Virus record (IMG/VR): IMGVR_UViG_3300033549_000065
Span: 64,001 to 128,000 of that record
Reading direction: 5' to 3' (one strand)
Source of the DNA: a virus
Lineage: Duplodnaviria; Heunggongvirae; Uroviricota; Caudoviricetes
DNA length: 64,000 bases
The translations under genes were made by a program, and so were the position numbers. The notes below the pieces were generated by a model, which searched no databases, had not been told where the DNA came from, and was given only the letters and a program-made list of their open reading frames with translations. Shown here piece by piece: positions 11,645 through 31,358 of the stretch (within the stretch, counting starts at the first letter, position 1; each line of letters opens with the position of its first letter).

Positions 11645-12421
11645 ATGGCATTTTCAGGTAAAGGATTTATTATCGATGCTCCTCAAGTTCTGTTGCAGAC
11701 TACAAGTGGTAATTCTCATTTGGCTACAGCTACCCAAGGTACAATTACATTGGGTGGAGATAGTATAGAATTAGCTGGTGGTTGGTCATTCTACAACTTG
11801 GCACGTATTGATACTAAGAAAACTATAAACCTCAGTTTAACTGATGCTCAGTGGGACTATGACACATTATGGTTGACAAGCGGAGGTGCTAAAACCACTG
11901 CTGCCAGTTCATATTACTATTTCGGTACTGCATATACAGTTGCAACAACTACATACAGAATTACTTTAGAAGATAAAATCGTTGAAGCTAGTTCAGTTGA
12001 AATTAATGGTTACACAGATGTAACGGCAACTTCAACTACTCCTGCTGCTGCTGAATTCTGGCATTACACAAGTGGAACAGATACAATTCTTGAATTTAAC
12101 AGTGCTGCTGTTGGTTTGAAATTATATCCAAGCTATACCGTGGCAACAACTTCAACTACAAGCATATTAACAACACAGACCACAGACTTTGCTGCTGCTG
12201 GTTCTGCAATAGCTCAGTTTCCGATTTATTCCGACGCTGATGCAACAGATTCAACAATAATCGCATATGCTCAGTTGGAAATCTATAAAGTTAAAATCAT
12301 GCCCACGTATGAATTTAGCGGGTCTTATAAAACCGGAAGCAACTTTAAGCTAGATTTAGAGGGGCTTGACCCACGTAGAAGCGACTCAAACATGTGGCAA
12401 TTGATAGTTGTACCAGTTTAA
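11645..12421 (+). CDS. Major tail (tube) protein
   Basis: 258 aa Thr-rich beta protein, strong SD TAAGGAGG, position after neck genes. Confidence 0.7.
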   Translation: MAFSGKGFIIDAPQVLLQTTSGNSHLATATQGTITLGGDSIELAGGWSFYNLARIDTKKTINLSLTDAQWDYDTLWLTSGGAKTTAASSYYYFGTAYTVATTTYRITLEDKIVEASSVEINGYTDVTATSTTPAAAEFWHYTSGTDTILEFNSAAVGLKLYPSYTVATTSTTSILTTQTTDFAAAGSAIAQFPIYSDADATDSTIIAYAQLEIYKVKIMPTYEFSGSYKTGSNFKLDLEGLDPRRSDSNMWQLIVVPV

Positions 12422-12473: not shown

Positions 12474-12502
12474 TTGACAAATAAAAAATAAAGTGTTATA
12501 TT
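12474..12502 (+). promoter_or_regulatory. sigmaA-type promoter at the start of the glycan island
   Basis: TTGACA (12474-79), 17 bp spacer, TATATT (12497-502). Confidence 0.6.
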
Positions 12503-12503
12503 T

Positions 12504-12545
12504 AGTATAGGAATCCTAAAAAAATTCCTATACTAATTTTTTTTT
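12504..12545 (+). terminator. Hairpin plus U-tract (terminator or operator)
   Basis: AGTATAGGAAT (12504-14) / ATTCCTATACT (12524-34) followed by AATTTTTTTTT. Confidence 0.7.
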
Positions 12546-12575
12546 ATCAAAAATCAAAAAGGAACAAAGGAATAT

Positions 12576-13562
12576 ATGAAAAATGTATTAATACCTCCGA
12601 TTGTTGATTATCGTTTTTTAAAACAACTGCCACAGCAAATGGCTGAACAGTTTGCTAATAATGGCTATAAAGTACATTACTGCAATATGTACCCTGTCAA
12701 CAAAAGTGTGATTGAAGTTAGTGACAACCTTACTGTTTACAATGATTGTAAGGTATTTTTAAATTTATTTAAAAGTAAGAAAATGAAAATTGATATATTT
12801 TACAATACATGGGCAAAAAATTATAATTGGCTACCGACAATAAAGCCCGACATTACTATATATCATTCATGTGACATGTTCGAAGAATGGACAGCTTTTG
12901 AGCCATTAATAATGAAGCAATCAGACGTTGTGTTGGCTACATCACAGATGATTTACGATGAGAGAAGAAAAAATCATGATAACGTTCATCTAGTCAGAAA
13001 TGCTTGTAATGAAAGTATGATTAATGCTGAGTGGAAATGCCCAGAGGATATTGCTAAAATTGAAAATCCTATTGGATTATTTTCAGGAGCTATTGGAAAT
13101 TGGGTAAAGACGTTTTTATTAAGCGAAGCTTCAAATCATTGTAATACTGTATTGGTAGGTTCTGAGTTCGGAAAACAACGACCTCAAAAGATGATAAATC
13201 TTGGAATAAAAAAGCATTCAGATTTAGTAAATTATTATAATGCTTCAGATATTGGATTATTGCCTTTTAATGTTAATTCAACTGTCACACAAGCTGCAAA
13301 TCCTATAAAGATGTGGGAGTATCTTGCTTGTGGATTGCCAGTATTAGCTACTTCTTGGGTTGAAACAGATTTACCAGAACTTAAAGACGTTGTGTTTACT
13401 GCAAATGAAACAGATAAATTTATTGAAAAATTAAATATGCTGTTAAATCTTAATGAAAATGAGAAAAAACAAATTTCAGAAAAAGCAAAAGAAATAGCAA
13501 GGAATAATACATGGGAAAAAAGATTTAAACAAGTAGAGGATATAATTAAGAATTTAAAATAA
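12576..13562 (+). CDS. GT-B glycosyltransferase (GT4 / TuaH-like)
   Basis: C-terminal NPIKMWEYLACGLPVLAT signature. Confidence 0.85.
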   Translation: MKNVLIPPIVDYRFLKQLPQQMAEQFANNGYKVHYCNMYPVNKSVIEVSDNLTVYNDCKVFLNLFKSKKMKIDIFYNTWAKNYNWLPTIKPDITIYHSCDMFEEWTAFEPLIMKQSDVVLATSQMIYDERRKNHDNVHLVRNACNESMINAEWKCPEDIAKIENPIGLFSGAIGNWVKTFLLSEASNHCNTVLVGSEFGKQRPQKMINLGIKKHSDLVNYYNASDIGLLPFNVNSTVTQAANPIKMWEYLACGLPVLATSWVETDLPELKDVVFTANETDKFIEKLNMLLNLNENEKKQISEKAKEIARNNTWEKRFKQVEDIIKNLK

Positions 13563-13573
13563 TATTTAAATAC
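13562..13573. promoter_or_regulatory. Single ATATTTAAATAC box
   Basis: One-mismatch copy between GT genes. Confidence 0.45.
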
Positions 13574-13607
13574 AAAAATTTTTATGTAAAGGAATAAAGG
13601 TATAAAA

Positions 13608-14627
13608 ATGAATATAGCAAAAAATAAAAAAATCAATGTTTTGTTTTTGAATCCAGCCCCTAGTTTAATTAAATATGGAATGTATTGGGGCATGAGTAAA
13701 ATTGGCTGTAATGCTTATTTATTTGACTATGGTGAAACTGCTTTATTTGATAAACCAGCCGATTATCAGTTAAAAAAGATTGAAGAAAAAATCATAGAGC
13801 AAAAGACAAATCTCATTTTTTGTGAAGGTTACGGAGGAGCGCCTATTCCTCAGATTAAAGAATTATGTAAGAAATATGGAATACAGTTCCATTTTTGGGA
13901 TATTGAAAGTCCTGTTACTCCAAGTATAGCAATGGGACAATTAAAATATGCTGATTTTATGTGGAGTACATGTATTGAATATATAGAAAAATTCAGAAGA
14001 ATGGGTTATTTGTCTGATTTACTGCTGTTTGGCTGTAATAATGATTATCATATCGCTAGAGAGCCGGAAGATAGGTTTAAACACGATATTTCTGTTGTGG
14101 GGTGTAATTACTCTAATAGGTTTGATAAGACGAGGGAATTCATCATTCCGCTGTTTGATAAGTTTGATGCTTTTGCTTATGGCTTTGCTTGGCTTGATGC
14201 TGGAAGACCTGTTAACTTATGCAGACATCCTGACAAAGTATGGGGAGAACCAAATGGATATTTAGGTTATGAGAATCTTGGAAGCGTAATAGCTTCAAGT
14301 AAAATAATGCTTGGAATGAACTGTCAGACTGATTTATCAATTACGCAAACATCATGTAGGCCATTTGAAACGCTTGCTTGGAGTAATAATGCTATCTATC
14401 TCGCGTGGTACACGCCCGCACAGAATACTTTATTTGGGGATTACATGTATCAGGCACATAATAAGCAGGAAATGATTGATATGGCAAATGAAATACTGGC
14501 AATGACAGATGAACAGAGAATAGCTTATGCAAAAAGAAGTAGTGAGTATGTTCACAGAGAACACAATTACGCTAGACGTGCTCAGACCGTTGTTGATAAA
14601 GCATTTGAATTAGGAGGTATTGACTAA
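13608..14627 (+). CDS. CgeB-like glycosyltransferase
   Basis: KHDISVVG, SSKIMLGMN, RPFE, EHNYARRA pattern of CgeB-type GT-B proteins. Confidence 0.75.
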   Translation: MNIAKNKKINVLFLNPAPSLIKYGMYWGMSKIGCNAYLFDYGETALFDKPADYQLKKIEEKIIEQKTNLIFCEGYGGAPIPQIKELCKKYGIQFHFWDIESPVTPSIAMGQLKYADFMWSTCIEYIEKFRRMGYLSDLLLFGCNNDYHIAREPEDRFKHDISVVGCNYSNRFDKTREFIIPLFDKFDAFAYGFAWLDAGRPVNLCRHPDKVWGEPNGYLGYENLGSVIASSKIMLGMNCQTDLSITQTSCRPFETLAWSNNAIYLAWYTPAQNTLFGDYMYQAHNKQEMIDMANEILAMTDEQRIAYAKRSSEYVHREHNYARRAQTVVDKAFELGGID

Positions 14628-15376
14628 TGGCTGGTTACGAAGGAACACCTTGGCTTTATAAAACATGTGAAATAAAGTATGAGGAAAAGGATGCAATGTC
14701 TGATACTGAGTTAATTAGTATAATTTGTGACAGTGTAAGGAATAAAAAGCCTTTCTGCATTAGTAGGTATGGAGACGGAGAAATTACTGTAATGTCCCAA
14801 GATTTGGCGTTAACACAAGAATGGCTAAGGAAGAATGTTGCATGGTATGACGGTTATACTTATTGTGGTGTTAAACTTCCTGATTATGATATGAGAGACA
14901 GATTAATACAGGCAGCAAAAGATTCTGATGCTATAGGAGTATTTTTTAATGATGCTTTTATAGACAGGGTATTTTCAAGTATTCATTTTAAACACGAAAA
15001 GTATTTTTATGCTTTTGCAAATGTATATTTCTGTTATAAAAAAGAATTTGTTGATTTAATAAAAGAAAATCCACCAATAGTTGTAGGAAGAAACGCTAAA
15101 AGGTATTCTGAATTACTGAAAAAAGAATTAGGAGTAACAGTTCCCGGTTATTATACAGAAATAACTTGTCCAAAAGACATTGAGCCTACTATGGATTGGA
15201 TGGAAAGCGTTGAACATGATTGGGCTTTAGTTTCTGCGGGTTGTAATGCAAATATTATTTGCACTCAAATGAAAAAAAGAACTGGTAAGGTTTATATTGA
15301 CCTAGGCCAAGGAACCGATACACTATTAGACCCTAAATATGAAGGAAGGTATTATTTTTACAAAGAAGAAAAATGA
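14627..15376 (+). CDS. GT-D fold glycosyltransferase
   Basis: KPFCISRYGDGE and YIDLGQ motifs typical of DUF1792 / GT-D. Confidence 0.75.
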   Translation: MAGYEGTPWLYKTCEIKYEEKDAMSDTELISIICDSVRNKKPFCISRYGDGEITVMSQDLALTQEWLRKNVAWYDGYTYCGVKLPDYDMRDRLIQAAKDSDAIGVFFNDAFIDRVFSSIHFKHEKYFYAFANVYFCYKKEFVDLIKENPPIVVGRNAKRYSELLKKELGVTVPGYYTEITCPKDIEPTMDWMESVEHDWALVSAGCNANIICTQMKKRTGKVYIDLGQGTDTLLDPKYEGRYYFYKEEK

Positions 15377-15900
15377 AAAATTATTATGAAATATTTGGCG
15401 ATAAAGTTTATATTTATTTAACGCAAGGACAAATTGCAGTAATTGATTTTGAAGATTTAAATTTAGCGAATAGTTTTATAGGCTTATGGTGCGCTCATTA
15501 TGACGAAGACGTAAATAACTATTATGTCGTTGGAAAATTTAAAGAAAATAATCATTGGAAAACAATCAAGTTGCATAGGCTTTTAACGAATACAAAAGAA
15601 AGAAATATATTTGTTGACCATAAAAATCATAATACCTTGGATAATACAAGAAATAATTTAAGACCATGTACTATTCAAGAAAATAATATGAATGCTAGAC
15701 CTAGAAAATTTGTTTCGAGTAAATATAAGGGTGTTAATTGGCATAGAGGTATTAATAAATGGGTGGCAAGAATTGGTTTTAATGGAAAAAGAATTGCATT
15801 AGGTTGTTATGATAAAGAAGAAGAAGCAGCATTGGCGTATCAAAATAAAGCAATAGAATTATTTGGAGAATTTAAATATCAATATGAAAAAATAAGTTAA
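15373..15900 (+). mobile_element. Free-standing HNH-AP2 homing endonuclease
   Basis: VDHKNHNTLDNTRNNLR HNH motif plus C-terminal AP2 (SKYKGV.W...W.ARI...LG.YD.EEEAA.AY). Confidence 0.9.
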
Positions 15901-15918
15901 ATAAGGATTGGTTAAAAG

Positions 15919-16623
15919 ATGAAATATAGTGTTTGCATTCTTCATTGGAATTGGTTAGAAGTGTTACAACCGACAATTGAAAATCTTCGCAAAGAGCGAG
16001 AAACAGTTGATTTAGAAATAATCGTATTAGATAATGGCTCAGAAGATGGTTCAAGAGAGTGGCTATTTCAACAGATTAAAGACATTACTATTATTTTTAA
16101 TAATAAAAATGTCGGGGCTGCTGTTGGAAGAAATCAGATGTTAAATATAGCTAAAGGTGAATATATTTTAATGTTAGATTCTGACATTTTATATGCTAAT
16201 GGCTCTATAGAATATTTAGCAAAAAGATTCGAAAATCAATCAAACAATGTTATGTGTATTGGCTTTAATCCACAAGTTTTTCATAATAATATGAATAACT
16301 ATACAGGTGTTCTGCCAAGTCTTGATGCACCATTAAAAAAGCATGATTTTCAAAGTGCTTCATATGCGTTAACACAGTATGGTTTATTTAAAAGCAAAAT
16401 GTTTGAAGCTTGCAGTTTTGATGAATCATTTGGTGTTGGTTATGGATTTGAAGACGATGATTTATTTTATCAAATGTGTGATTTTGGATGGGAAGTGCAT
16501 TCTGTCGATTTTGAATATTATCATGCTAAAAATACCGATAAGTGGAAAGCAGTTCATGAGAAATCAATGGTAAATTATTATGATAGACATGCAATGTTTA
16601 GAATGAAGTGGTGGAGTGATTAA
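15919..16623 (+). CDS. GT2-family glycosyltransferase
   Basis: IIVLDNGSEDGS, RNQ, LDSD (DxD), EDDDL motifs. Confidence 0.85.
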   Translation: MKYSVCILHWNWLEVLQPTIENLRKERETVDLEIIVLDNGSEDGSREWLFQQIKDITIIFNNKNVGAAVGRNQMLNIAKGEYILMLDSDILYANGSIEYLAKRFENQSNNVMCIGFNPQVFHNNMNNYTGVLPSLDAPLKKHDFQSASYALTQYGLFKSKMFEACSFDESFGVGYGFEDDDLFYQMCDFGWEVHSVDFEYYHAKNTDKWKAVHEKSMVNYYDRHAMFRMKWWSD

Positions 16624-17322
16624 ATGAATAAAAATATATATATATGTTGGGCATCTATAAGACCTCATGCTGTAAAAGAAGTCTCAAAGGAATGGCTTGA
16701 AAATTGTGTTTTTAAAGAAAATCTTTATTGGAAAATAGCAATGGCAAGCGAAGAGCAAAAAGCAGAAGTAGAAGCGTTAAATATACCGAACTGTGATGTT
16801 ATAGCCGTAACAGATAAAGTTAGTTACAATCACGCAATAACTCAGATTACGTTGAATTTAGAAATGAATGATGAGGACATTTTAATTGTGGTTTCGGACG
16901 ATATGTATTGTTTTTCCGGTTGGGACATGTATTTAAGACAAAGATTTGAAGAATGGCAAGGGGCAATATTCATTAATGATGGTTGCGGTATTTATAGCAG
17001 AATAATAACCCTTGCTTGTATGACTTTTGCTTGCATTAAGAAATTAAATAAAATCATCTATCATCCAGTATATACTCATTTTTATTCTGATGATGAGGCA
17101 TATTGGAATTTGCTTGAACTTGGATTATTGCAAGACAATAGAAGTTTGCAAGATGAACATGGTAATTTTATTGACCCTGCTTATTTTCAGCATAAACATT
17201 ATGGAACGGATGGAACAAGACCTGATATACACGATAATAGATATAAACAGTCATATACAACAGATGGACATATTTTTCATAAAAGAAGAAACATGCCTAT
17301 TCATGAAAGGTTGAAGTTATGA
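16624..17322 (+). CDS. GT-A-like glycosyltransferase, paralogue 1
   Basis: VVSDD, FYSDDE, HKH motifs; clear similarity to the next ORF. Confidence 0.6.
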   Translation: MNKNIYICWASIRPHAVKEVSKEWLENCVFKENLYWKIAMASEEQKAEVEALNIPNCDVIAVTDKVSYNHAITQITLNLEMNDEDILIVVSDDMYCFSGWDMYLRQRFEEWQGAIFINDGCGIYSRIITLACMTFACIKKLNKIIYHPVYTHFYSDDEAYWNLLELGLLQDNRSLQDEHGNFIDPAYFQHKHYGTDGTRPDIHDNRYKQSYTTDGHIFHKRRNMPIHERLKL

Positions 17323-17996
17323 AAACAATATATTTCTTATGGGCGACTGTTCGGCCTGAAATGGTTAAAGCTACATATCCGATTTGGGCAAATAGAAGGG
17401 TTTTAGGGACTCCGATTATAACAAAAATAGCAACATTGAACGATGTCATGAAAGCTCAAATCGATGCTTTAAATATACCGAACTGTGATGTAAAGGTTGT
17501 TAATGACAAAGAAGGTTACAATCATGCTGTAACAGTATTAAGTAAAGAACTTGAAGCAAATGATGATGACATTATTATTACTGTCTGTGATGATTTTGAT
17601 GCCCCTCAAGGTTGGGACAAGTTTGTTTTAGACAAGTTTGAGAACTTTGACGGAGCGCTTTTTCTTGATGATGGCTACCAAAATATTTTAATTAAAGAAG
17701 GTTGCATGTGTATAACTATTGCCTGTTTGACTTTCAGCACATTAAAGAAGCTCAATAAAATCATATTTCATCCTTCTTATAATCACTTCTTTTCTGATAC
17801 TGAAGCTTTTGTTAATTTTAAACAACTCGGAATACTATGGGACACAAGAGACACAGACAATATGTGCTTCAGACATGCAAGAGATAGAAAGCCATACGAT
17901 GATTATGACAGGCGTAATAGTGAATGGTGGGGTATTGATAACGCAAATTATTTAAAAAGGCTACAAATGAGCCTTGAGGAGAGATTACATGACTGA
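17319..17996 (+). CDS. GT-A-like glycosyltransferase, paralogue 2
   Basis: VCDDF, FFSDTE; shares LNIPNCDV, YNHA and KKLNKII.HP with the previous ORF. Confidence 0.6.
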   Translation: MKTIYFLWATVRPEMVKATYPIWANRRVLGTPIITKIATLNDVMKAQIDALNIPNCDVKVVNDKEGYNHAVTVLSKELEANDDDIIITVCDDFDAPQGWDKFVLDKFENFDGALFLDDGYQNILIKEGCMCITIACLTFSTLKKLNKIIFHPSYNHFFSDTEAFVNFKQLGILWDTRDTDNMCFRHARDRKPYDDYDRRNSEWWGIDNANYLKRLQMSLEERLHD

Positions 17997-18129
17997 AAAA
18001 TTATTAATTTATTTGATTTATTGCACAATATTTGGAATTATTGGTTGTATTATAAAAGATTATATCGGTTACTATTTATATGTATTTGGCTTCATGGTTG
18101 GATTTATAGGGAAAATGATTTTAGATTAA
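17989..18129 (+). CDS. 46 aa hydrophobic membrane peptide (not in ORF track)
   Basis: MTEKLLIYLIYCTIFGIIGCIIKDYIGYYLYVFGFMVGFIGKMILD; overlaps the upstream stop and ends just before the next SD. Confidence 0.5.
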   Translation: MTEKLLIYLIYCTIFGIIGCIIKDYIGYYLYVFGFMVGFIGKMILD

Positions 18130-18138
18130 GGAGAGAAA

Positions 18139-18762
18139 ATGGATAAAAATACGATAAGAGCAATGCTGCCAGATGATGCAGTTATTTTAGATGCAGGAGC
18201 TTTTAATGGAGGGGATTCAGTTGATTTTGCGAAGTTATTTCCGAATGGAACTATTATTGCGATTGAACCAGTCTCTTATATATATGAAATGTTGGTTGAT
18301 TATACGAAAGACTGTTCCAACATAAAGACTTTTAAATTAGCTTTAGATGATACTGTTGGAGAGAAAACAATGTATATAAGTTCTGGATTTTCAGTACAAT
18401 CAAGCGCTTTAATGAAACCGAAAGAGCATTTAACTATGTTTCCGACCTGTGAATTTAAGACGGAAGAAACCGTTAAGACAACGACAATAAATCAGTTCTG
18501 TAGGGACAATGGTATAAATAAGATTGACTTCATGTGGCTCGATTTACAGGGTAATGAACATAAAGTATTACAGAATGCAGATGAAATACTGCACACAACT
18601 CAGGCTATTTATTCGGAATACTCTTTAGTTGAGTATTATGAAGGGTTAACGCTTTACGAAGATTTTAAAAAATTCATGAGAGAAATAGGATTTGAAGAAA
18701 TTCATAATGAAAATCATTATAATTCAATTGGAATGGGCAACTCATTATTTGTAAGAAAATAG
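18139..18762 (+). CDS. FkbM-family SAM methyltransferase
   Basis: LDAGAFNG, IAIEP, IDFMWLDLQGNE motifs. Confidence 0.9.
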   Translation: MDKNTIRAMLPDDAVILDAGAFNGGDSVDFAKLFPNGTIIAIEPVSYIYEMLVDYTKDCSNIKTFKLALDDTVGEKTMYISSGFSVQSSALMKPKEHLTMFPTCEFKTEETVKTTTINQFCRDNGINKIDFMWLDLQGNEHKVLQNADEILHTTQAIYSEYSLVEYYEGLTLYEDFKKFMREIGFEEIHNENHYNSIGMGNSLFVRK

Positions 18763-18770
18763 CAATTTAT

Positions 18771-18797
18771 TATAAAGTGCACCGTGTGCACTTTATA
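18771..18797. terminator. Hairpin after the FkbM gene
   Basis: TATAAAGTGCAC-CGT-GTGCACTTTATA perfect inverted repeat; weak U-tract. Confidence 0.5.
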
Positions 18798-18829
18798 AAT
18801 CATATTTTTATACGCAATAAAAAAATCAT

Positions 18830-18841
18830 ATATTTAAATAT
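18830..18841. promoter_or_regulatory. ATATTTAAATAT box with a degenerate partner at 18802
   Basis: Perfect box at 18830; ATATTTTTATAC lies exactly 28 bp upstream. Confidence 0.6.
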
Positions 18842-18859
18842 AAAAAAAGGAGATTTAAA

Positions 18860-19570
18860 ATGTCAGGAGAAAGAAATATTTTTGGAAGTTATACACAGAA
18901 TAAGGTTTTTATTGAAACTGGAAGTTATTATGGAGAGGGCATACAGAGGGCTTTAGACGTTGGATTTGAAAGAATAATCTCAATTGAAATAACACCAAAG
19001 TATTTTAATTTATGTCAAGATAAATTTAAAAACAATACAAATGTTGAAATTTTATTCGGTGATTCTGTCAAAATACTGCCGGGTTTATTGGAGAGTATAG
19101 ACGAACCAGTTACCCTTTGGTTAGATGCACATTACACAGAACCTTCAACTTTATTCAATGAAAATGGTTGGTGTCCAATACTTAATGAGCTTGAAATTAT
19201 AAAAGCTCATGCTCAGAAGTATAATGACATATTGCTCATAGATGATTTAAGAGTATGGGAAGAATCTTGTTATGCTTTTGACTGTGATGATATAAGGAAT
19301 AAATTAAAAGAAATTAACTCAAATGTAGCAATCACATATGATGATGGATTTGTACCCAATGATGTTTTAGTTGCAAAGTTTGAAAATAAATCAGAGTCAA
19401 AGTCGGTAAATATCGAACTTCAACAACCTATGAATGTAGGAATGGTCGAAGTTACAGCATGTACACCTTCAATTAAAGCCGAAAAAAGTCCTAAGAAATA
19501 TGCTTCAAAATCAGAAGAAAAAAGAATTAAATCGCAGATAGAAAAAAAGAAAAATAAGGTGCAAATATGA
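18860..19570 (+). CDS. Class I SAM-dependent methyltransferase-like protein
   Basis: [25 protein letters not shown] motifs. Confidence 0.7.
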
Positions 19571-20601
19571 AAAAAGCATTAATAACAGGTATAACTGGTC
19601 AAGATGGTCATTATTTAACGAAATCATTATTGGAAAAAGATTATGAGGTACATGGATTAATAAGAAAAGCCAGTACATTTAATACAGAGAGAATTGATGA
19701 ATTTTATAATGACCCAAACATCGGATATAAAAAACTTCATCTTCATTTTGGCGATATGACTGACAGTAGTAATTTAAATAGGATTTTAAATAAGATAAAG
19801 CCTGATGAAATATACAATCTTGCTGCTCAGTCTCATGTAAAGGTATCTTTTGAAATGCCTGAATATACAGGTGATGTAGATGGTTTAGGTGTCGTAAGGC
19901 TATTAGATGCTATAAAAGATACAGGGATTAATACGAGATATTATCAGGCATCGAGTTCTGAATTATTTGGTGGATTGCCTGAAACCGTACCTCAGAATGA
20001 AAATACTCCATTTACACCAAGAAGTCCTTATGCTTGTGCAAAACTATATGCTTATTGGGTTACAAGGAATTATAGAGAAGCATATAATATGTTTGCTTGT
20101 AATGGAATACTAATGAACCATGAATCTCCAATGAGACTCCCAACATTTGTAACAAGAAAAATAACACAGTCTGTATCACGAATACTTTACGGAATGCAAA
20201 ATATATTGACTTTAGGTAATCTCGATGCAATAAGGGATTGGAGTTTTGCTGGCGACATGGTAGAAGGTATGTACTTAATGCTTCAACAGGACAAGCCACA
20301 GGACTATGTATTAGCTTCTGGCGAAGGGCGTACAGTTAGACAATTTGTAGAACAAGCCTTTCAATATGTTGGAATTAATATTTTATGGCATGGAGAAGGG
20401 ATAAATGAAATCGGAATTAATTCAAAAAATAATCAAACCTTAGTTAAAGTAGAAGAAAGATTTTTTAGGCCAACAGAGGTTGATTATTTACTCGGAGACT
20501 CAACAAAAGCAAGGAATGAGTTAGGTTGGAAACCAAAAGTAAGTTTTAATGAGCTTATTGAAATGATGATGGATTATGATTTAGAAATTAATAAAAAGTA
20601 A
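19567..20601 (+). CDS. gmd: GDP-mannose 4,6-dehydratase
   Basis: [49 protein letters not shown]. Confidence 0.97.
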
Positions 20602-20602
20602 G

Positions 20603-21037
20603 GTGAAATTAGTGAAAGCAAAGGTTGTGGTGGCAAGTGGCATTTTTAATATTTTACATCGTGGACATTTGGAATATTTAAGAATGGCGAAAGCTCTTGG
20701 TGACATTCTTATTGTTTTAGTTGACAGCGACAGAAAAACTATAGAGAATAAAGGCTATTTGGCATTAGATGAAGAAGCAAGAGTTGACATTATTAGTGAG
20801 TTAAAGTGTGTTGACATTGCAAAGATTATTGATATTTCTGTTGCTGAAGCTTTAGAATTAATTAAACCTGACATATTTTGTAAAGGAGGCGATAGAACAT
20901 TGGAAACACTGCCTCAAGAAGAAATAAATGCTTGTCAAAAGAACGGAATTGAGATTGTAACTGGTCTAGGAGATAAAATAAATTCAAGTAGTGAATTATA
21001 TAAAAAGGTGGAACTATGGAAAAAACATCAAAAATAA
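20603..21037 (+). CDS. HxGH nucleotidyltransferase (TagD / RfaE-II-like cytidylyltransferase)
   Basis: SGIFNILHRGH, KGGDR, SSSE motifs. Confidence 0.85.
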   Translation: MKLVKAKVVVASGIFNILHRGHLEYLRMAKALGDILIVLVDSDRKTIENKGYLALDEEARVDIISELKCVDIAKIIDISVAEALELIKPDIFCKGGDRTLETLPQEEINACQKNGIEIVTGLGDKINSSSELYKKVELWKKHQK

Positions 21038-21948
21038 TAGTATTAGGTAGTAATGGAATGGTTGGAAGTGCAATATATAAGCAGTTGCAGTTAGAAGGTT
21101 GTGAAAATGTCGTTGGTATTACTCATCAACAGAGAGAATTAGATGATGAAGTTCAAACAAAATGGTTATTCCGTGATGAGCAATTTGATTATGTATTTCA
21201 ATGTGCTGCTTTGGTCGGAGGATTATTTGCAAATAGTCAATTTCCAGTTGAGTTTTATCAACAGAATGCTCGGATTAATGCAAACGTATTGAAATATGCT
21301 CATGAAACTAATGTTAAAAAAGTTATGATATTAGGGAGTTCGTGCATTTATCCAAAACGTTGTAAACAGCCAATTACAGAAAGCGAATTATTATCTGGTA
21401 GGCTTGAAACCTCAAATGAAATGTATGCACTTGCCAAGATTTCAACTATAAAGCTTGCTCAAGCATACTGTAAAGAATATGGATGTAATTATATAAGTGT
21501 TATGCCATGCTCATTAATAGGCTCTAATGATAACTTTGACCCCAATACCTCTCATTTTATTCCCGGTATTATGAAAAGAATGGACGATGCCAAGGTTAAC
21601 GGAATTGGTAAAGTTACTATTATGGGTACTGGAACGCCTCGCAGAGAATTTTTATATGTTAATGATTTTGCAGAAATGGCAGTTTGGCTCATGAATAATT
21701 ATGACAGTCCAGAACTGATTAATATCGGTTCAGGTGTTGAATACAGTATTGCTGAGATAGCAGAAATGATAAAAGGGATTGTTGGGTACGAAGGGAAACT
21801 TGTGTTCGATAAGAAAGCTCCAAACGGAACGATGAGAAAGTTATTGGATGTAAGCAAGATGAATGCACTTGGATTAAGCTATAAGACTGAATTAAAAGAA
21901 GCAATTGAAAAATTATATGAGTGGTATATTAAAAATAATGATATTTAA
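21016..21948 (+). CDS. fcl: GDP-L-fucose synthase
   Basis: GSNGMVG, AALVGG, LGSSCIYP, YALAK, SHFIP, GTGTPRREFLYV. Confidence 0.95.
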   Translation: MEKTSKIIVLGSNGMVGSAIYKQLQLEGCENVVGITHQQRELDDEVQTKWLFRDEQFDYVFQCAALVGGLFANSQFPVEFYQQNARINANVLKYAHETNVKKVMILGSSCIYPKRCKQPITESELLSGRLETSNEMYALAKISTIKLAQAYCKEYGCNYISVMPCSLIGSNDNFDPNTSHFIPGIMKRMDDAKVNGIGKVTIMGTGTPRREFLYVNDFAEMAVWLMNNYDSPELINIGSGVEYSIAEIAEMIKGIVGYEGKLVFDKKAPNGTMRKLLDVSKMNALGLSYKTELKEAIEKLYEWYIKNNDI

Positions 21949-21980
21949 ATATTAAATAAAAAATTTATATATTTAAATAC
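21941..21980. promoter_or_regulatory. Double box, 28 bp period
   Basis: ATATTTAAATAT at 21941, ATATTTAAATAC at 21969. Confidence 0.8.
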
Positions 21981-21992
21981 GAAAGGAAAATT

Positions 21993-23003
21993 ATGTTTAA
22001 ATTAAATTTAGTTGATGTAACACTTCGTGACGGAGGATATGTTAATAATTGGGAATTCGGGCATTCTAACGCTCGCAATATTATTCAACTCCTCCAAGAA
22101 GCAAATGTAAATGTTATAGAGTGCGGAATACTCGGAAAAACTAACAACACGGAAAGCACAATGTTTAATAATTTAGAAGATTTTAAAAGCATTTTACCTC
22201 CAAAAGTAGAAGGTTGTAAATATGCTGCTATGATAAATTTTGTTGGCAAAGACGACTTTATAATTACAGAACGTAAACCAGATGGAATTGACATTATAAG
22301 ATTGGCTTTCTTTAAAGAGGATTTTATTCAAGCTACATTTTTTGCAGAGCATTTAATACAATTGGGTTATGAAGTTAGTTTAAATGCTATGGCAATACAC
22401 ATGTATAATAGGATTGAATTGACAAATTTAATTGCACTTGTCAATATTATTAAGCCTACTGTTTTTTATATGGTTGACTCTTTCAGTGCAATTACTCAGA
22501 CTGATGAATTCTTTGCAATAATTAACGCTCGGTTAAATGATGATATTGATTTTGGTATTCATTGTCATAATGCTTTACAAATGGCAAACGCAAATACAAT
22601 GAATTTTATATTAGCTGGAATTTCAATGAAAAGAGATATATGGGTTGACACAAGTATTGCTGGAATGGGTAGAGGCGCGGGAAATGCTGTCACTGAAGTA
22701 ATTATGAGTAATCTAAATACTTCTGCGGTATTTGAACCACAATACGACATAACTAAGGTTATTGAGATTTATGAGAAGTATATTTCAAAAATTTATAAGG
22801 AATTCCCTTGGGGATATACATTGAAGCATTATTTATGTGCTGTTAAAGAAGTCAATCCTGCTTATATTTGGTACTTAGATAAAAATGGAATAACAGACTT
22901 AAATGAAATTCAATTAATCTTAAGTGAGATTCCAGAATACTGTAAACATTACTTAAATAAAGAAGAAATTAATAAGATTATAGAAGGAAAAGCAGATGAA
23001 TAA
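21993..23003 (+). CDS. DRE-TIM (HMGL-like) aldolase
   Basis: DVTLRDGGY, GIHCHN, GMGRGAGN motifs. Confidence 0.85.
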   Translation: MFKLNLVDVTLRDGGYVNNWEFGHSNARNIIQLLQEANVNVIECGILGKTNNTESTMFNNLEDFKSILPPKVEGCKYAAMINFVGKDDFIITERKPDGIDIIRLAFFKEDFIQATFFAEHLIQLGYEVSLNAMAIHMYNRIELTNLIALVNIIKPTVFYMVDSFSAITQTDEFFAIINARLNDDIDFGIHCHNALQMANANTMNFILAGISMKRDIWVDTSIAGMGRGAGNAVTEVIMSNLNTSAVFEPQYDITKVIEIYEKYISKIYKEFPWGYTLKHYLCAVKEVNPAYIWYLDKNGITDLNEIQLILSEIPEYCKHYLNKEEINKIIEGKADE

Positions 23004-23757
23004 TGAATTAAAACGGATTAGAAAAAAAATTCTTTACTATGCTTATAGAGGGCAAGAAGCAAACCTTCAGAGTGCCTTTTCTGCCCTTGAAACCATATGG
23101 GTGTTATACAACAAGGTAATGAAAAAAAACACGTCAAAACGGTCGTATTTTGATAATTTTATACTTAGCAAAGGACAAGCTTCTCTTGCTCAATATGTAG
23201 TACTTGAAGATATTGGATTAATCAGCGAAGAAGCTCTTGAAACTTATTGTAAGTTTAATTCGCCCTTTGGCGCTCAAGCTGATAGATGTAAATTTGATAA
23301 TTTTATTGAGACTTCTACTGGTTCTCTTGGACATGGATTACCTATGGCTGTTGGTATTGCTTTAGCAAAGAAAACAAAAGGTATAGACTCTAATGTCTTT
23401 TGCTTATGTGGGGACGGAGAATTTAATGAGGGTACAATGTGGGAATCTTGTATGCTTGCGAGTAAAAAGAAATTAAGAAATCTTAAAATAATCATAGAAA
23501 ATAATAACGATGGAACACCAGATTTAGCAAGGAAATTAGAAGCTTTTGGCATAACAGCATATAACTGCATAGATGGACATGATACCAATAATCTGTCTCA
23601 AGCTTTGAGTTGGGTATCTGCTAATCCAATGGCCTTTATATTAAGGACAATTAGAGGTTATGGCTGTCATACACTTGCGAATGACAATTCATGGTGGCAT
23701 AAATCTCCTAATTTAGATGAGTTATTTTCATTGGTAAGTGAGGTGGATAGGTTTTGA
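22996..23757 (+). CDS. Transketolase-like protein, N-terminal TPP-binding subunit
   Basis: LSKGQA, STGSLGHG, GDGEFNEG...WE...NN. Confidence 0.9.
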   Translation: MNNELKRIRKKILYYAYRGQEANLQSAFSALETIWVLYNKVMKKNTSKRSYFDNFILSKGQASLAQYVVLEDIGLISEEALETYCKFNSPFGAQADRCKFDNFIETSTGSLGHGLPMAVGIALAKKTKGIDSNVFCLCGDGEFNEGTMWESCMLASKKKLRNLKIIIENNNDGTPDLARKLEAFGITAYNCIDGHDTNNLSQALSWVSANPMAFILRTIRGYGCHTLANDNSWWHKSPNLDELFSLVSEVDRF

Positions 23758-24635
23758 GAAAGCAAATGTTTAAGACTGTCAGTGAAGTAATAAAATCTGA
23801 TTACAATACCTCATTATTTCTTGTTGACATTGGAGTTATGGGATTTAAAGATGTTTTGCGAGAACATGATGATAGGTGTATGAATATAGGCGTTTTTGAG
23901 GACGGAATGGTATCTATGATGGCAGGAATGGCATTAGGTGGGTATATACCTATCGTATATGGAATATCGCCATTTATCATCGAAAGAGCATACGAACAAC
24001 TTAAGTTAGATTTTAATTATCAGATGCTTGGGGGGAATTTTATTCTTTCTGGTGCTGCTTATGATTTTTCTAAATACGGTTATTCTCACTACTGTCCAGC
24101 GGATTTAGGATTGGTTCAAATGTTACCAAATGCTAAATTTATAGCTCCCGGTACTGGACAGGAATTTGAGGAGTTATTTAAGATGAATTATAAAAGCACA
24201 GTTCCAGTGTTCTATAGGCTTTCTGACTTTCCAAATGAAAATGAGGTAGATGTAGGATTTAACAGAGCTAAAATAATAAAAAGAGGTTCAAAGGCTACTG
24301 TAATTGCTGTTTCGACAATGCTTGATAAAGTTATTGAGGCTTGTGGAGATGAAGATGTTACGATTTTATATTACACTACTTTAAAACCATTTGATTATAG
24401 TACTTTGTGCAGTGAATACGTAGGGGATAGAATTTTACTTTGCGAACCTTATTATTATGGACTTTTAACACAAGATATTGTTAATGCCATTACACCAAGT
24501 CCTGTGAGGATTGATTATGTAGGATTACCAAGAAAAATATTTAGGGATTATGGGACAAAACAGGAAAAAGATGAATATTACGGGCTTACTGTTGAAAATA
24601 TTCAGGACAAGTTAAGAGGGTTAATAAATGAATAG
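23754..24635 (+). CDS. Transketolase-like protein, C-terminal subunit
   Basis: NIGVFE, RAYEQ, YSH; pyrimidine-binding plus C-terminal domain layout. Confidence 0.9.
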   Translation: MRKQMFKTVSEVIKSDYNTSLFLVDIGVMGFKDVLREHDDRCMNIGVFEDGMVSMMAGMALGGYIPIVYGISPFIIERAYEQLKLDFNYQMLGGNFILSGAAYDFSKYGYSHYCPADLGLVQMLPNAKFIAPGTGQEFEELFKMNYKSTVPVFYRLSDFPNENEVDVGFNRAKIIKRGSKATVIAVSTMLDKVIEACGDEDVTILYYTTLKPFDYSTLCSEYVGDRILLCEPYYYGLLTQDIVNAITPSPVRIDYVGLPRKIFRDYGTKQEKDEYYGLTVENIQDKLRGLINE

Positions 24636-25650
24636 ATTTTTAGAATATGATGCTTTAGATGTAGTATTAAGAATGGATATGGAATATTTCAGAGACAAGA
24701 GAATACTTATAACTGGCGCTACTGGTTTACTCGGAACAAATTTTGTTGCTTCTTTGGCTATGATGAATATGGATTTTCGTTGTACTATAACGTTCAACAG
24801 TAAACTAGAAAAACATTTCATTGAAATTATTGATGAACGATTTCAGTTAGTAAAGGGTGATTTAACATCTAATGAAGTCACAGATTTTTTAGAAGACGAA
24901 TCCTATGATTGTATTATACACTGCGCTACCTATGGACAACCAGCGTTAATATTTGATAAATCTCAATTTAAAAATCAACTCAAAACAGTGCAGCTCAATA
25001 CTTCGGTTTTAATTAATCTTTTTAGTCTTTTGAAAAAAGATGGAAAGTTTTTATTCATAAGCACTTCAGAAGTTTATCAAGGCTTAACAGGAGAACATAA
25101 AGAACATGAAATCGGAACTACTAACACGACACACCCAAGAGCTTGTTATATAGAAGCAAAACGATGTGGAGAGGCTATATGCGACATCTACAGAAAACAA
25201 GGTTATGATGTTAAAATTATCAGACTGTGTTTGGGTTATGGAAGTGGGATTAAAAAAACAGATACGCGAGCATTAAATACTTTTATATACGAGGGATTAG
25301 TCAAAGGAAAAATAGATTTACTTGATTCTGGTTCTGCAATAAGAGCCTATTGTTATGTATCTGATGTTATTTACATGGCTTTGAACATTTTAATCAATGG
25401 ACAAGACTTTATTTATAACGTTGGAAGTACTGAAAAAACAACCATCAAACAACTTGCCGAGAGAATCGGTCTTATCTTAGACGTTCCCGTTAATATTCCT
25501 TCTGAAAACAAAGAAATCACTGGCGCTGTAAATTGTGTAGCTTTAAATCTTGATAAGTACATATCTGAGTTCGGAGAATATAAATTTATATCTTTAAAGT
25601 ATGGCCTTGAAAGAATTATAGGCTGGTGGAAATTCCTACTAGATAAATAA
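24628..25650 (+). CDS. NAD-dependent SDR epimerase/dehydratase, UDP-glucuronate decarboxylase-like
   Basis: TGATGLLG, STSEVY, RACYIEAKRCGE (YxxxK), RAYCYVSD. Confidence 0.85.
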   Translation: MNRFLEYDALDVVLRMDMEYFRDKRILITGATGLLGTNFVASLAMMNMDFRCTITFNSKLEKHFIEIIDERFQLVKGDLTSNEVTDFLEDESYDCIIHCATYGQPALIFDKSQFKNQLKTVQLNTSVLINLFSLLKKDGKFLFISTSEVYQGLTGEHKEHEIGTTNTTHPRACYIEAKRCGEAICDIYRKQGYDVKIIRLCLGYGSGIKKTDTRALNTFIYEGLVKGKIDLLDSGSAIRAYCYVSDVIYMALNILINGQDFIYNVGSTEKTTIKQLAERIGLILDVPVNIPSENKEITGAVNCVALNLDKYISEFGEYKFISLKYGLERIIGWWKFLLDK

Positions 25651-25670
25651 TTTAATAGAAAAATTTTTTA

Positions 25671-25710
25671 ATATTTAAATATGCAAATAAAATAATGCGT
25701 ATTTAAATAT
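25671..25710. promoter_or_regulatory. Double box, 28 bp period
   Basis: ATATTTAAATAT at 25671, GTATTTAAATAT at 25699. Confidence 0.8.
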
Positions 25711-25742
25711 GCAAAAAAATAAATAACAAAGGATGAAATGGA

Positions 25743-26624
25743 ATGTTCGATGAAAACAATTTACCTACAGTTACTATAGGTTGTCCTTTAGCCAATCGTC
25801 AATACACGATAAATAGGTATTTAGATGGTATTTACGGTTTAGATTATCCAAAAGATAAAATTAAATTATTTTTTCTGTTGAATAATAGTAAGGATGATAC
25901 TGAATTTGAATTAAAACGCTTTAAACAAAGGTATGGCAAGGAATACTTAGATGTTACTATTGAAAAGTTTAAGGGTTTACCAAATAAAGAAGACAGAAGG
26001 GTTACGCATGTAAGAGCTGAAATATACAAGAAATTATCTGTTCTGAGAAATCATGTATTAGATGCAGTTGATACGGATTTTTATTTTAGCGTTGACTCAG
26101 ATATTATATTAAATTCTGATGTTTTAACGGATTTAATAAGAGCAGATAAAGACATTATAGCAGCAGTTGTGAATAACGACATGCTTTTAAGACCTTATGA
26201 TGAATACCCAAATATCAGAACTAATTTATTGGTTTGCGAAGGAAAAATAATAACACATAAATTAAACTTTGAATTAAATGATGTTGTAGAAGTTGATGTA
26301 ACTGGTGCTTGTATATTGATGTCAAATAAGGTCTGCAAGGAAACTCGCTATAGTTTTCATAATCAAGGAGAAGATGTAAGTTGGTCTTTTGATGCAAAGG
26401 AAAAGGGTTACACACTTTATGCCCATACAGGACAATGGCAAAAACATATTATGTGTGAATATATGCCGTATTGCATAGAAAACAAATGCCAAAATCCTTG
26501 CGTAAAGGTAAATAGCGAAGACAAAGTTTATCAATATAAATATAAAGACAATGTAGTTTATCCGAATTTAATAAGATGTGGAAAATTGGTTAAAGGAGAT
26601 AAACCATTGCTCGAAAACATTTGA
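25743..26624 (+). CDS. GT-A (GT2-like) glycosyltransferase
   Basis: RNHVL, FSVDSD (DxD), VTGACILM, GED motifs. Confidence 0.8.
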   Translation: MFDENNLPTVTIGCPLANRQYTINRYLDGIYGLDYPKDKIKLFFLLNNSKDDTEFELKRFKQRYGKEYLDVTIEKFKGLPNKEDRRVTHVRAEIYKKLSVLRNHVLDAVDTDFYFSVDSDIILNSDVLTDLIRADKDIIAAVVNNDMLLRPYDEYPNIRTNLLVCEGKIITHKLNFELNDVVEVDVTGACILMSNKVCKETRYSFHNQGEDVSWSFDAKEKGYTLYAHTGQWQKHIMCEYMPYCIENKCQNPCVKVNSEDKVYQYKYKDNVVYPNLIRCGKLVKGDKPLLENI

Positions 26625-26650
26625 GAAGCCGAAAGGCTTCTTTTTTTTAT
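26624..26650 (+). terminator. Intrinsic terminator closing the glycan island
   Basis: AGAAGCC-GAAA-GGCTTCT plus T-run; same AAGCC-GAAA-GGCTT core as the terminator at 1305. Confidence 0.85.
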
Positions 26651-26672
26651 TAGAAAAATAGGAGGTTAAAAA

Positions 26673-28394
26673 ATGACTGTTTTAGATAACAAATTACAAA
26701 GAAATACTTCTGATGGACATATTATGCCAATGCAATTTTATGACGAAGCTTCAGACTCAATGTTAGTAGTAACGGCAACTACTCCGTTGCCTGTAAATAT
26801 TTCAGAAGCAGAGATTCAAGTTGCGGTTGAGATTAATGTAGATGATATAATTACAGTAAAGCAACCCACTCATGATGATTTAAATTGTAATGCCAATATT
26901 CAATTTGGAAATGCAGACATAAGTTCTTCAACGCCTTTACCAATAGAGATAAGTCAATTGGTAGATGGAACAACAAATAAGGTTCAAGCAAGAAACGCTA
27001 CTCATGATAATTTTCAAGTTAATGCAACTGTTCAATTAGGAAATGCGGATATCTCAGCCAGTACGCCATTACCAGTTACAAATGAGACTCATGATTTATT
27101 CAACGTTAACGCCAATGTTCAATTAGGTAATGCAGATGTATCAAGCAGTACGCCTTTGCCGATGGAAATAAGCCAATTAGTAGATGGCACTACGAATAAA
27201 GTACAAGCTCGAAATGCAACGCATGACAACTTTCAAGTTAATGCAACTATTCAATTGGGAGATGCAGACGTGAGTTCAAGCACTCCTTTACCAGTAACTT
27301 CAGCTACCCATGATTTATTTAATGTTAATGCTACTGTACAGCTTGGCAATGCTGATGTTTCATCTAGTACTCCTCTGCCTGTTACCAATGAAACACATGA
27401 TTTGTTTAATGTAAACGCAAACGTACAATTTGGAAATGCTGATGTAAGCTCTAGTACTCCATTACCTGTAACGGGAATAGTTTCAAATCCTACTCATGAT
27501 GATTTTAACGTTAATGCTACGCTTCAATTAGGAGATGCTGACATTTCGGCTTCAACACCTTTGCCTGTAACGAGTGCTACGCATGACTTATTTAATGTTA
27601 ATGCAAACGTACAATTTGGAAATGCAGATGTTTCAAGTTCTACTCCATTGCCTGTGACGGGAGAAGTCACAAGTTCTGCTCATGACAATTTTAAGGTAAA
27701 TGCTACTCTACAGTTAAGCGATGCAGACATTAGTTCATCTACTCCTTTACCCGTAACAAGTGCTACTCATGACTTATTTAATGTAAATGCAAATGTTCAA
27801 TTCGGAAATACAGACGTAAGTTCTGCTACACCATTACCAATAGCAGGAGAAGTCACAAGTGGAACACATGATAATTTTAAAGTTAATGCTACTTTGCAAC
27901 TTGGAGATGCGGATATTAGTTCTTCTACTCCATTGCCAGTAACTAATGAGACACATGATTTGCTTAATTGCAATGCAAATGTACAGTTTGGTAATGCAGA
28001 TGTTAGTTCTGCTACACCTTTACCAGTTAATCTTGAAGTTGGAAATACTGCTGTAAGCAATACAAATCCTATCCCAATAGTTGAGAGAAAAACTAATGTT
28101 GCTCCGGCAGCAAGCCCTGTAACAGTAGATACTACTGTTGGCGGTACTACAATTTGCGCTGAAAATGCAAATAGGTTAAGAATAACAATTCAAAATACTG
28201 GAACTGAGCCATGTATAGTTCGCCTTGGTGGAAATCCAACAACTTCAGCTTATAATTTTATTTTATTCACTGATACTTCAGCTAGAAAAGGTGAAGGAGG
28301 AAGTTGGACTTGTGATAAATACTATGGTGCTATTAAAGGCTTAACAGAGGCTAATTCAACTACGATTGCAGTAACGGAAGAGGTGAGCGCATAA
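26673..28394 (+). CDS. Repeat-rich putative virion fibre / decoration protein
   Basis: 12 copies of HDxxxxNA[TN]xQ[LF]G[ND]AD[VI]SSSTPLP[VIM] plus a C-terminal beta domain of about 100 aa. Confidence 0.75.
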   Translation: MTVLDNKLQRNTSDGHIMPMQFYDEASDSMLVVTATTPLPVNISEAEIQVAVEINVDDIITVKQPTHDDLNCNANIQFGNADISSSTPLPIEISQLVDGTTNKVQARNATHDNFQVNATVQLGNADISASTPLPVTNETHDLFNVNANVQLGNADVSSSTPLPMEISQLVDGTTNKVQARNATHDNFQVNATIQLGDADVSSSTPLPVTSATHDLFNVNATVQLGNADVSSSTPLPVTNETHDLFNVNANVQFGNADVSSSTPLPVTGIVSNPTHDDFNVNATLQLGDADISASTPLPVTSATHDLFNVNANVQFGNADVSSSTPLPVTGEVTSSAHDNFKVNATLQLSDADISSSTPLPVTSATHDLFNVNANVQFGNTDVSSATPLPIAGEVTSGTHDNFKVNATLQLGDADISSSTPLPVTNETHDLLNCNANVQFGNADVSSATPLPVNLEVGNTAVSNTNPIPIVERKTNVAPAASPVTVDTTVGGTTICAENANRLRITIQNTGTEPCIVRLGGNPTTSAYNFILFTDTSARKGEGGSWTCDKYYGAIKGLTEANSTTIAVTEEVSA

Positions 28395-31336: not shown

Positions 31337-31358
31337 TAAATAATTGGAGGAAAAGGAA

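Follow-up and report, generated by a model that had tools for sequence, protein, structure and literature searches.

What does a 14-kb block of sugar-handling genes do in the midst of the genes that build a phage particle? This question is raised by an uncultivated phage whose complete genome of 128,062 bp, with direct terminal repeats, is held as an IMG/VR virus record (IMGVR_UViG_3300033549_000065). The second half of this record, positions 64001-128000, is the stretch of 64,000 nucleotides analysed here (the window), and the block, hereafter the island, lies at 12576-26624 of it. The best reading, which is held tentatively, is that the island sugar-coats proteins of the phage particle by O-glycosylation. 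With similar reserve, the island can be regarded as a cytoplasmic glycosylation kit that is self-sufficient and spreads horizontally among SPbeta/E3-like siphophages. Support comes from the gene content and the lack of a membrane protein in the island, from same-slot versions in relatives, shared TATTTAAATA boxes and a matching guanine-cytosine (GC) content, and from two glycosyltransferase families (GT-D and a GT-A type starting at 16624) that occur mainly in viral clusters. The precedents of CgeB and of a mycobacteriophage glycosyltransferase and O-methyltransferase set would point in the same direction by analogy, as may a threonine in all 12 loops of the adjacent repeat protein P0001 and the lack of a ThyA-type hydroxymethylase, ThyX or Dcm. 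An earlier note on the window had also proposed virion glycosylation. Of this proposal, the membrane-free, self-contained toolkit within the late virion gene array and its conserved slot were found, while no serine/threonine (Ser/Thr) signal tracking the island was detected in the core virion proteins.

The island encodes seven glycosyltransferases (GTs) of three folds, namely two CgeB-like GT-B enzymes, one GT-D enzyme and four GT-A enzymes (Table 1). These, as well as two methyltransferases, had been named in the earlier note and were confirmed by Pfam, NCBIfam and structure neighbours. The two GT-B genes, for which the cut-off of PF13524 is 25 bits, stand side by side in every relative examined. 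For the second of them, the best-conserved core gene, 36 homologues with identities of 43-72%, labelled 'spore maturation protein CgeB' by JGI, were found on phage-sized contigs of up to about 125 kb. Many of these relatives have a recorded PF12996 N-domain, a record that the window copy itself does not carry. Homologues of the first GT-B (32-50% identity) adjoin the second one in L006, L007, L013 and L018. A complex prediction of the two proteins gave a score of 0.00, which is no verdict and not evidence either way. The nearest Atlas clusters of the GT-D protein were mostly viral; a peptide-pattern query of viral contigs with it returned no confirmed relative, and PDB sequence searches with it and with the core GT-B returned no matches. 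The 16624-type GT-A, present here as two paralogues, has single-copy homologues in L007, L013 and L018, and a homologue of the Anp1-like GT, the last gene of the island, is the first gene after the tube in L018 and in the P0092 contig. Every gene class listed in the earlier note is present; what the list had missed is a homing endonuclease gene that directly follows the GT-D gene.

The nucleotidyltransferase, the aldolase, the split transketolase and the short-chain dehydrogenase/reductase (SDR) that had been listed were all recovered by family matches. The proposed pair of Gmd and Fcl was upheld in its first member, which scores above the curated cut-off, whereas the Fcl-like protein has its best match by far in the expected family yet stays below the cut-off. 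For this reason, a fucose-containing glycan is likely but not certain, and the product of the Fcl-like enzyme could be another GDP-6-deoxyhexose. Gmd, the Fcl-like enzyme, the split thiamine diphosphate (ThDP) enzyme and the UXS-like SDR co-occur in two lineages, and the nucleotidyltransferase and the aldolase are extras of this phage. A heterodimeric ThDP enzyme acting together with a UXS-like SDR on a 4-keto sugar nucleotide has been proposed as a route to C-4 branched sugars (PMC10338323), and on this analogy the gene set would suggest that the island makes a branched deoxy-sugar. Known systems of this kind are YerE/YerF for yersiniose and the heterodimeric EvdU5/EvdS3 with the UXS-like EvdS6 (PMC10338323). 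What they have in common with the island is a ThDP enzyme of two subunits, accompanied by a UXS-like SDR and by a supply of 4-keto sugar nucleotide. In contrast, the phage halves resemble transketolase and DXS and not the pyruvate dehydrogenase E1-like or acetolactate-synthase-like enzymes, and the phage sugar nucleotide is probably GDP-linked, with the chemistry being predicted.

Table 1. Features of the window in order of position, with the matches on which each assignment is based.
Feature	Position	Strand	Basis
Terminase and portal	2241-5563		
YonB capsid	7527-8513		Precomputed Pfam on relatives
YomU_Tube tail tube, directly upstream of the island	11645-12421	+	PF27173, precomputed on this protein and 53 relatives; PHROG 2729 (virion structural protein)
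Sigma-70-like promoter match (TTGACA, 17 nt, TG-TATATT)	12474-12502	+	11 of 12 match; pattern match only
12-bp AT-rich hairpin and T9 run, after promoter match and before first GT	12474-12546 (span including the promoter match)	+	
GT-B, first of the conserved CgeB-like pair	12576-13562	+	PF13524 52.7 bits
GT-B, CgeB-like, best-conserved core gene	13608-14627	+	PF13524 41.7 bits
GT-D fold glycosyltransferase	14627-15376	+	DUF1792-like domain; PF22882 E 7.8e-42; NF040628 114 bits, cut-off 75
HNH-AP2 homing endonuclease	15373-15900	+	PF00847 AP2 36.2 bits; PF13392 HNH_3
GT2 (GT-A fold) glycosyltransferase	15919-16623	+	PF00535 E 5e-22
Phage-specific GT-A-fold protein, paralogue 1	16624-17322	+	No Pfam match; Atlas structure neighbours are viral clusters, several with PF00535
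Phage-specific GT-A-fold protein, paralogue 2	17319-17996	+	No Pfam match; 41% identical to 16624-17322
FkbM-family methyltransferase	18139-18762	+	PF05050 65.4 bits; TIGR01444 78.4 bits, above cut-off
Class-I S-adenosylmethionine (SAM) methyltransferase-like protein	18860-19570	+	No Pfam match; Atlas neighbours O-methyltransferase and FkbM-type clusters; lead only
GDP-mannose 4,6-dehydratase (Gmd)	19567-20601	+	TIGR01472 534.5 bits, above 415 cut-off
Small nucleotidyltransferase, cytidylyl/adenylyltransferase family	20603-21037	+	PF01467; RfaE domain II 85.9 bits, below 181.5 cut-off; PDB relatives found
GDP-L-fucose synthase-like SDR (Fcl-like)	21016-21948	+	NF047922 374.6 bits, below 500 cut-off
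HMGL/DmpG-like aldolase	21993-23003	+	PF00682; best solved relative 3dxi (putative aldolase), then 4-hydroxy-2-oxovalerate aldolases
Split transketolase-like ThDP enzyme	N half 22996-23757; C half 23754-24635	+	PF00456, PF02779; best solved relative split-chain transketolase 6yak
UXS-like extended SDR	24628-25650	+	PF01370; best solved relatives UDP-glucuronate decarboxylases, 94 bits
Anp1/GT2-like GT-A glycosyltransferase, last island gene	25743-26624	+	PF03452 50.6 bits
Terminator-like hairpin, 8-bp GC-rich stem and T run	26623-26648	+	Pattern match
Repeat protein P0001, candidate acceptor	26673-28394	+	12 Ser-Ser-Ser-Thr-Pro loops, from translation
Fibre-like protein P0002, 930 residues	28394-31186	+	22% Ser+Thr; no family match
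Two small genes, probable tail chaperones	31344-31817 and 31820-32104	+	tblastn matches in L014, L016, L017, L020
Tape measure	37365-43886	+	PF10145 (PhageMin_Tail) 91 bits; three hydrophobic segments

A Kyte-Doolittle scan showed no membrane segment in any island enzyme. Thus, the earlier statement that the island holds no flippase, polymerase, GtrAB-type or other polytopic membrane protein is borne out by hydropathy, and apart from the tape measure and small holin-like open reading frames, the scan found no multi-span protein elsewhere in the genome. In this respect the island differs from GtrABC and other three-component systems of lysogenic conversion, which involve a polytopic flippase and a GT-C or bactoprenol-linked GT.

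Serine-rich-repeat adhesins of streptococci are glycosylated in the cytoplasm, where the pair GtfA/GtfB primes and a GT-D enzyme (DUF1792) extends the O-glycans. Two adjacent GT-B genes accompanied by GT-D and GT-A extenders are found in both systems, and both would act in the cytoplasm on Ser/Thr repeats, which is proposed for the phage side. Differences are the lack of accessory Sec genes in the island and the short S-S-S-T-P loops of P0001 compared to the long serine-rich repeats of the adhesins. The spore crust of B. subtilis offers a second parallel, in which CgeB is reported to glycosylate the crust protein CgeA at Thr112 (PMC13577073). The core GT-B and CgeB are both members of the Pfam family PF13524, with relatives of the former that also carry PF12996, and in both cases a protein assembly built inside the cytoplasm is, or would be, modified without lipid carriers. 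On the other hand, the phage GT-Bs form a divergent phage-borne branch that is likened to CgeB by Pfam family, the donor sugars differ, and no CgeA-like gene is known from the phage, although no search aimed at one was made. Since CgeB is reported to act on Thr112 of CgeA and GT-D enzymes act on serine-rich adhesins, direct cytoplasmic O-glycosylation of protein would be the simplest mechanism. Following this mechanism, Gmd, whose identity is assigned by sequence and whose activity is predicted, would convert host GDP-mannose to GDP-4-keto-6-deoxymannose, from which the Fcl-like enzyme would form GDP-L-fucose or a related 6-deoxyhexose. The split ThDP enzyme and the UXS-like SDR would probably add and then reduce a two-carbon branch on the 4-keto sugar nucleotide, and the nucleotidyltransferase and the aldolase could be the source of a second activated unit. 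The CgeB-like pair would prime Ser/Thr at the surface of a protein in the cytoplasm, in the manner of CgeB on CgeA, followed by chain extension by the four GT-A enzymes and the GT-D enzyme and capping by the two methyltransferases. The most likely acceptors would be phage particle proteins, with the adjacent P0001 as the best candidate in this phage.

The position of the island was compared in about 12 sampled gene contexts of relatives. As the earlier note had described, the island lies between a tail gene and fibre and chaperone genes, with the YomU tube upstream and two fibre-like proteins followed by chaperone homologues downstream. A synteny survey, which had been put forward as a check, revealed versions of the island after the tube and before the tape measure in at least six other phages (L006, L007, L013, L012, L018/L021 and the P0092 contig). 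In the GT-less relatives L014, L016, L017 and L020, the tube is followed by homologues of the two chaperone-like genes and then by the tape measure. Accordingly, the region of about 12.4-31.3 kb, comprising the island and the two fibre-like genes, is an insertion relative to the backbone. In the phages with a tube 65-74% identical to that of the window (L006, L007, L013 and L012), the GT-B pair follows the tube in all cases and the 16624-type GT-A gene is also present in L007 and L013, while the remainder of the island varies. L007 has the FkbM methyltransferase, the methyltransferase-like gene and Gmd in common with the window (50-72% identity), whereas the island of L013 instead contains a GT4, a class-I methyltransferase, a B12-radical SAM enzyme and a UDP-glucose dehydrogenase. 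From tube to tape measure, the P0092 contig encodes the Anp1-like GT, the GT-B pair, a GT4, a radical SAM enzyme, a UDP-glucose dehydrogenase, an SDR and a GT-D enzyme, with no fibre genes. A further relative (G001, 78%-complete) ends within the island, at Gmd.

The tube of L018/L021 is of the E3 type and gave no tblastn match to the window tube. Next to it, the CgeB-like GT (72%), Gmd (76%) and the FkbM methyltransferase (55%) of the window island are found, together with, in the same order, the Fcl-like enzyme (47%), the ThDP halves (44% and 46%) and the SDR (52%); extras are a TagF-type Glyphos_transf gene and a nucleoside triphosphate (NTP) transferase. The occurrence of enzymes with 72-76% identity beside an unrelated tube indicates that the island moves horizontally. 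Judged by these comparisons, it is a mobile module exchanged among divergent SPbeta/E3-like phages, always with the layout of tube, island, and chaperones and tape measure. Homing endonuclease genes lie within the glycan islands of both types (HNH-AP2 at 15373-15900 in the window, HNH_3 at 3606-4250 in the E3-type relative L018) and may help the island to spread between phages. In L013, a 74-residue protein of the Acb2/Tad1 hairpin family, an anti-CBASS/Thoeris sponge, is encoded at 11019-11243 directly after the CgeB-like GT, which, by family assignment, shows that counter-defence cargo shares the island slot in this phage. A more far-reaching and rather doubtful version of the favoured proposal would be that SPbeta/E3-like phages of freshwater Gram-positives swap a plug-in glycan factory, always inserted after the tail-tube gene, that places a methylated O-glycan with a 6-deoxyhexose and a ThDP-derived branched sugar on assembled virion proteins, with CgeB-family priming as on the spores of bacilli. 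If this were true, virion glycosylation would be widespread and far more elaborate than in the mycobacteriophage cases.

Island and virion genes lie on the same strand with tight spacing, and the GC content of the island equals that of the rest of the genome. The palindrome TATTTAAATA occurs at 27 sites in the window compared to 1.08 expected, and its boxes lie in the intergenic gaps of the island just as they do ahead of the tube, chaperone and tape-measure genes. The sites, for example those at 11529, 13563, 18831, 21970, 25672, 31270 and 37257, are located directly upstream of ribosome-binding sites (RBSs), often in a 28-bp register. Since TATTTAAATA stands upstream of late structural as well as early genes, it is not specific to early promoters. 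The island is probably expressed together with the virion genes. With respect to the criteria for a moron, a promoter-like site and a terminator-like hairpin are present, yet the GC content is that of the backbone and the genome-wide palindrome boxes are shared. The AT-rich hairpin before the first GT may be the terminator of the tube gene. From the terminator-like hairpin at the island end to the RBS of the repeat protein only about 25 nt remain, with no promoter-like site between them. The two fibre-like genes after the island (26000-30000) showed a GC content of 0.35-0.37 and a GC skew of 0.06, compared to 0.31-0.33 and 0.2-0.29 for the island. A separate acquisition of these two genes may be the reason; another explanation may be merely an effect of Ser/Thr-rich codons.

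In P0001, threonine was found in 12 of 12 scored repeat loops (S-S/A-S/A-T-P-L-P), compared to asparagine in 36 of 37 loops of 21 homologues, which is suggestive of an acceptor role. An AlphaFold2 model of P0001 with 13 aligned relatives reached a mean predicted local distance difference test (pLDDT) of 45 and was unusable. The fibre-like proteins encoded at 28394-31186 and 32879-36967 come next as candidates. The latter, a protein of 1362 residues with 24% Ser+Thr and no family match, has three to four long internal repeats, each opening with a motif of the W-x-G-x-x-G-N-W type, and ends in an array of short 'TA-x-G' units; it is probably a large beta-helical fibre. It is preceded by a protein of 153 residues (32379-32840, phrog_644), which represents a modular domain with counterparts at 11363-14827 of L012 and 2360-2779 of L013. 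In the relatives, this domain either stands alone ahead of LRR_5 proteins or makes up the N-terminal part of large proteins, DUF285 proteins among them, with three copies in L012, and it looks like a common virion anchor for interchangeable fibre or adhesin proteins.

Several observations weigh against glycosylation of the particle. The threonine in the 12 loops of P0001 may be one change that was spread by repeat homogenisation. Homologues of P0001 in L003 and L015 have no GT neighbours, on which ground the family was rejected as a GT-linked acceptor family, and both P0001 and P0002 are absent from other island-bearing phages. The alignment of the tube revealed no Ser/Thr tail and no island-specific Ser/Thr loop, and the Ser/Thr-rich strands that it has recur in the relatives without GTs. 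For 11 orthologous core virion proteins, the Ser/Thr content was equal whether or not the phage carries the island. With no signal in either the alignment or the Ser/Thr covariation, the tube was rejected as acceptor. Since enzymes with 72-76% identity stand beside a tube that is unrelated by BLAST, an acceptor specific to one backbone is unlikely. Furthermore, the slot holds non-structural cargo in E3 (integrase-like, PemK and immunity genes) and in L013 (Acb2/Tad1-like, NUDIX, amidase and helix-turn-helix genes), so that the position alone is no proof of a virion function. The island of one relative contains a TagF-type Glyphos_transf gene, which is typical of teichoic acid synthesis, and the promoter match together with the end terminator gives the window island a moron-like outline.

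Part of these observations would fit an island directed at the host, a reading that is credible, if rather unlikely. In this case, an acceptor accessible from the cytoplasm would be modified, either a lipid-linked precursor of wall teichoic acid or of a secondary wall polymer, or flagellin or a serine-rich adhesin. The consequence would be altered phage receptors, leading to superinfection exclusion or preventing progeny from adhering to debris. An island shared by phages with unrelated tubes fits a target that lies outside the phage backbone, and host-interaction cargo (toxin-antitoxin, immunity, anti-defence, NUDIX and amidase genes) in the slot of relatives, the TagF-type gene with its NTP transferase and SDR, and the promoter and terminator matches at the island ends point in the same direction. 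The phage may also be temperate (tyrosine recombinase, ParA), and its SLH-domain endolysin implies a host with a secondary cell-wall polymer. Single cytoplasmic GTs such as TagE, TarM, TarS and the prophage-encoded TarP glycosylate teichoic acid without a flippase. Against a host target stands that no priming phosphoglycosyltransferase, flippase, GtrAB-type or GT-C protein was found anywhere in the genome, and that a set of seven GTs and two methyltransferases with donor pathways is far larger than what phages are known to use for receptor modification. In addition, the palindrome boxes of the island are the same as those at lytic and structural genes, and the GT-D and 16624-type GT-A families are mostly viral and not close copies of bacterial genes. 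If the host wall were the target after all, no larger membrane-free module for receptor remodelling would be known from any phage.

Another cytoplasmic product, such as a soluble oligosaccharide, a glycolipid or a glycosylated small molecule or peptide serving for example as decoy, osmolyte or counter-defence agent, is improbable. It would be consistent with the Acb2/Tad1-like anti-defence hairpin protein and the NUDIX enzymes in the nearby cargo of a relative and with the peptide S-glycosyltransferase carried by SPbeta itself, although the GT2 enzyme gives only a weak SunS-family match (E 0.0012). However, no precursor peptide, exporter or lipid-handling gene was found in or near the island, and the gene set resembles a multi-step assembly of an oligosaccharide on a macromolecular acceptor.

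Phage GTs are best known from the glycosylation of DNA, and every island enzyme is soluble, so that sugars on modified phage bases, as in T-even phages or TET-linked systems, have to be considered as well; arrays of diverse DNA-modifying GTs have been reported (Pyle et al. 2024, cited in PMC12619734). This explanation, which the earlier note had listed as an alternative, has been weakened to the point of being very improbable. In the complete 128-kb genome, PF00303 (ThyA-family), PF02511 (ThyX) and PF00145 (Dcm) were absent while the positive controls worked; accordingly, no thymidylate-synthase-family hydroxymethylase, ThyX or cytosine-5 methyltransferase is at hand. The search of the genome for PF12851 (Tet_JBP) was also blank, but its control was silent too, which makes this result uninformative. 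Moreover, the island lies in the virion gene array and not in the nucleotide-metabolism arm.

To our knowledge, virion glycosylation has been shown experimentally in only a few mycobacteriophages, where 2-4 genes shield the particles from antibodies. Mycobacteriophage virion glycosylation is the closest known system, and that the island works in the same manner is inferred by analogy. According to PMC11600133, which cites Freeman 2023, three GTs and an O-methyltransferase modify capsid and tail tube, and the phages concerned are named there and in PMC12619734 as the Cluster O Corndog-type, the F1 Che8-type and Myrna. Phage-encoded soluble GTs and an O-methyltransferase among or near the virion genes are common to both systems. 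Compared to the 2-4 genes of the mycobacteriophages, the island has about seven genes for donor synthesis in addition to its seven GTs (three folds) and two methyltransferases, and the host would be a low-GC Gram-positive whose wall binds SLH domains. While the mycobacteriophage tube has a C-terminal Ser/Thr acceptor tail, the tube of the window has none, and while glycans have been demonstrated there, the island is known from its genes alone. With the chloroviruses and mimivirus (PMC5408694, PMC9614988), the island shares a virus-encoded GDP-fucose-route synthesis with transferases independent of membrane machinery. Those are, however, giant viruses that infect eukaryotes and carry N-linked or fibril glycans, whereas the window belongs to a tailed phage with a Gram-positive host. 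In cyanophages, Gmd is known on its own (PMC9602691). No description of a tailed phage with this many transferases and donor pathways turned up in the literature searches, in agreement with the earlier note, which knew of none at this scale. If the particle is indeed the target, a 14-kb kit with its own donor pathways, conserved yet swapped among SPbeta-like phages, would show that glycan machinery as large as that of giant viruses is within reach of tailed phages. Phage biology would then be linked to protein glycosylation of the spore-crust (CgeB) type, with bearing on phage stability, host range and immune recognition, and glycoengineering could draw on novel soluble O-glycosyltransferases for proteins and perhaps on a novel pathway to branched sugars.

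The backbone was named via precomputed Pfam families on relatives, among them also the YomW, YomX and YomN families. The capsid protein shares 42% identity with its counterpart in Geobacillus virus E3 and about 25% with the capsids of the SPbeta group. On the basis of these matches, the phage is an SPbeta/E3-like siphophage. A megablast search with 24 kb against the phage collection gave zero matches and thus no near-identical relative among deposited phages. A search of sequencing runs listed no RNA run and two lake-water DNA runs with 0.12 and 0.06 of the words, from which no claim on habitat or expression is drawn. Following the lysis genes, a ParA/MinD-type partition ATPase is encoded at 52855-53676 (PF13614, 202 bits), and a tyrosine recombinase is encoded in the first half of the genome; by their families, the two suggest a temperate or plasmid-prophage lifestyle. 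The endolysin at 50020-50781 consists of an Amidase_2 domain fused to an SLH domain. Given this SLH domain, a pyruvylated secondary cell-wall polymer that binds SLH is to be expected in the host, which hints at a host of the Clostridia or Bacilli type. One relative of the tube, with 43% identity, sits in a metagenome-assembled genome labelled Clostridium sp.

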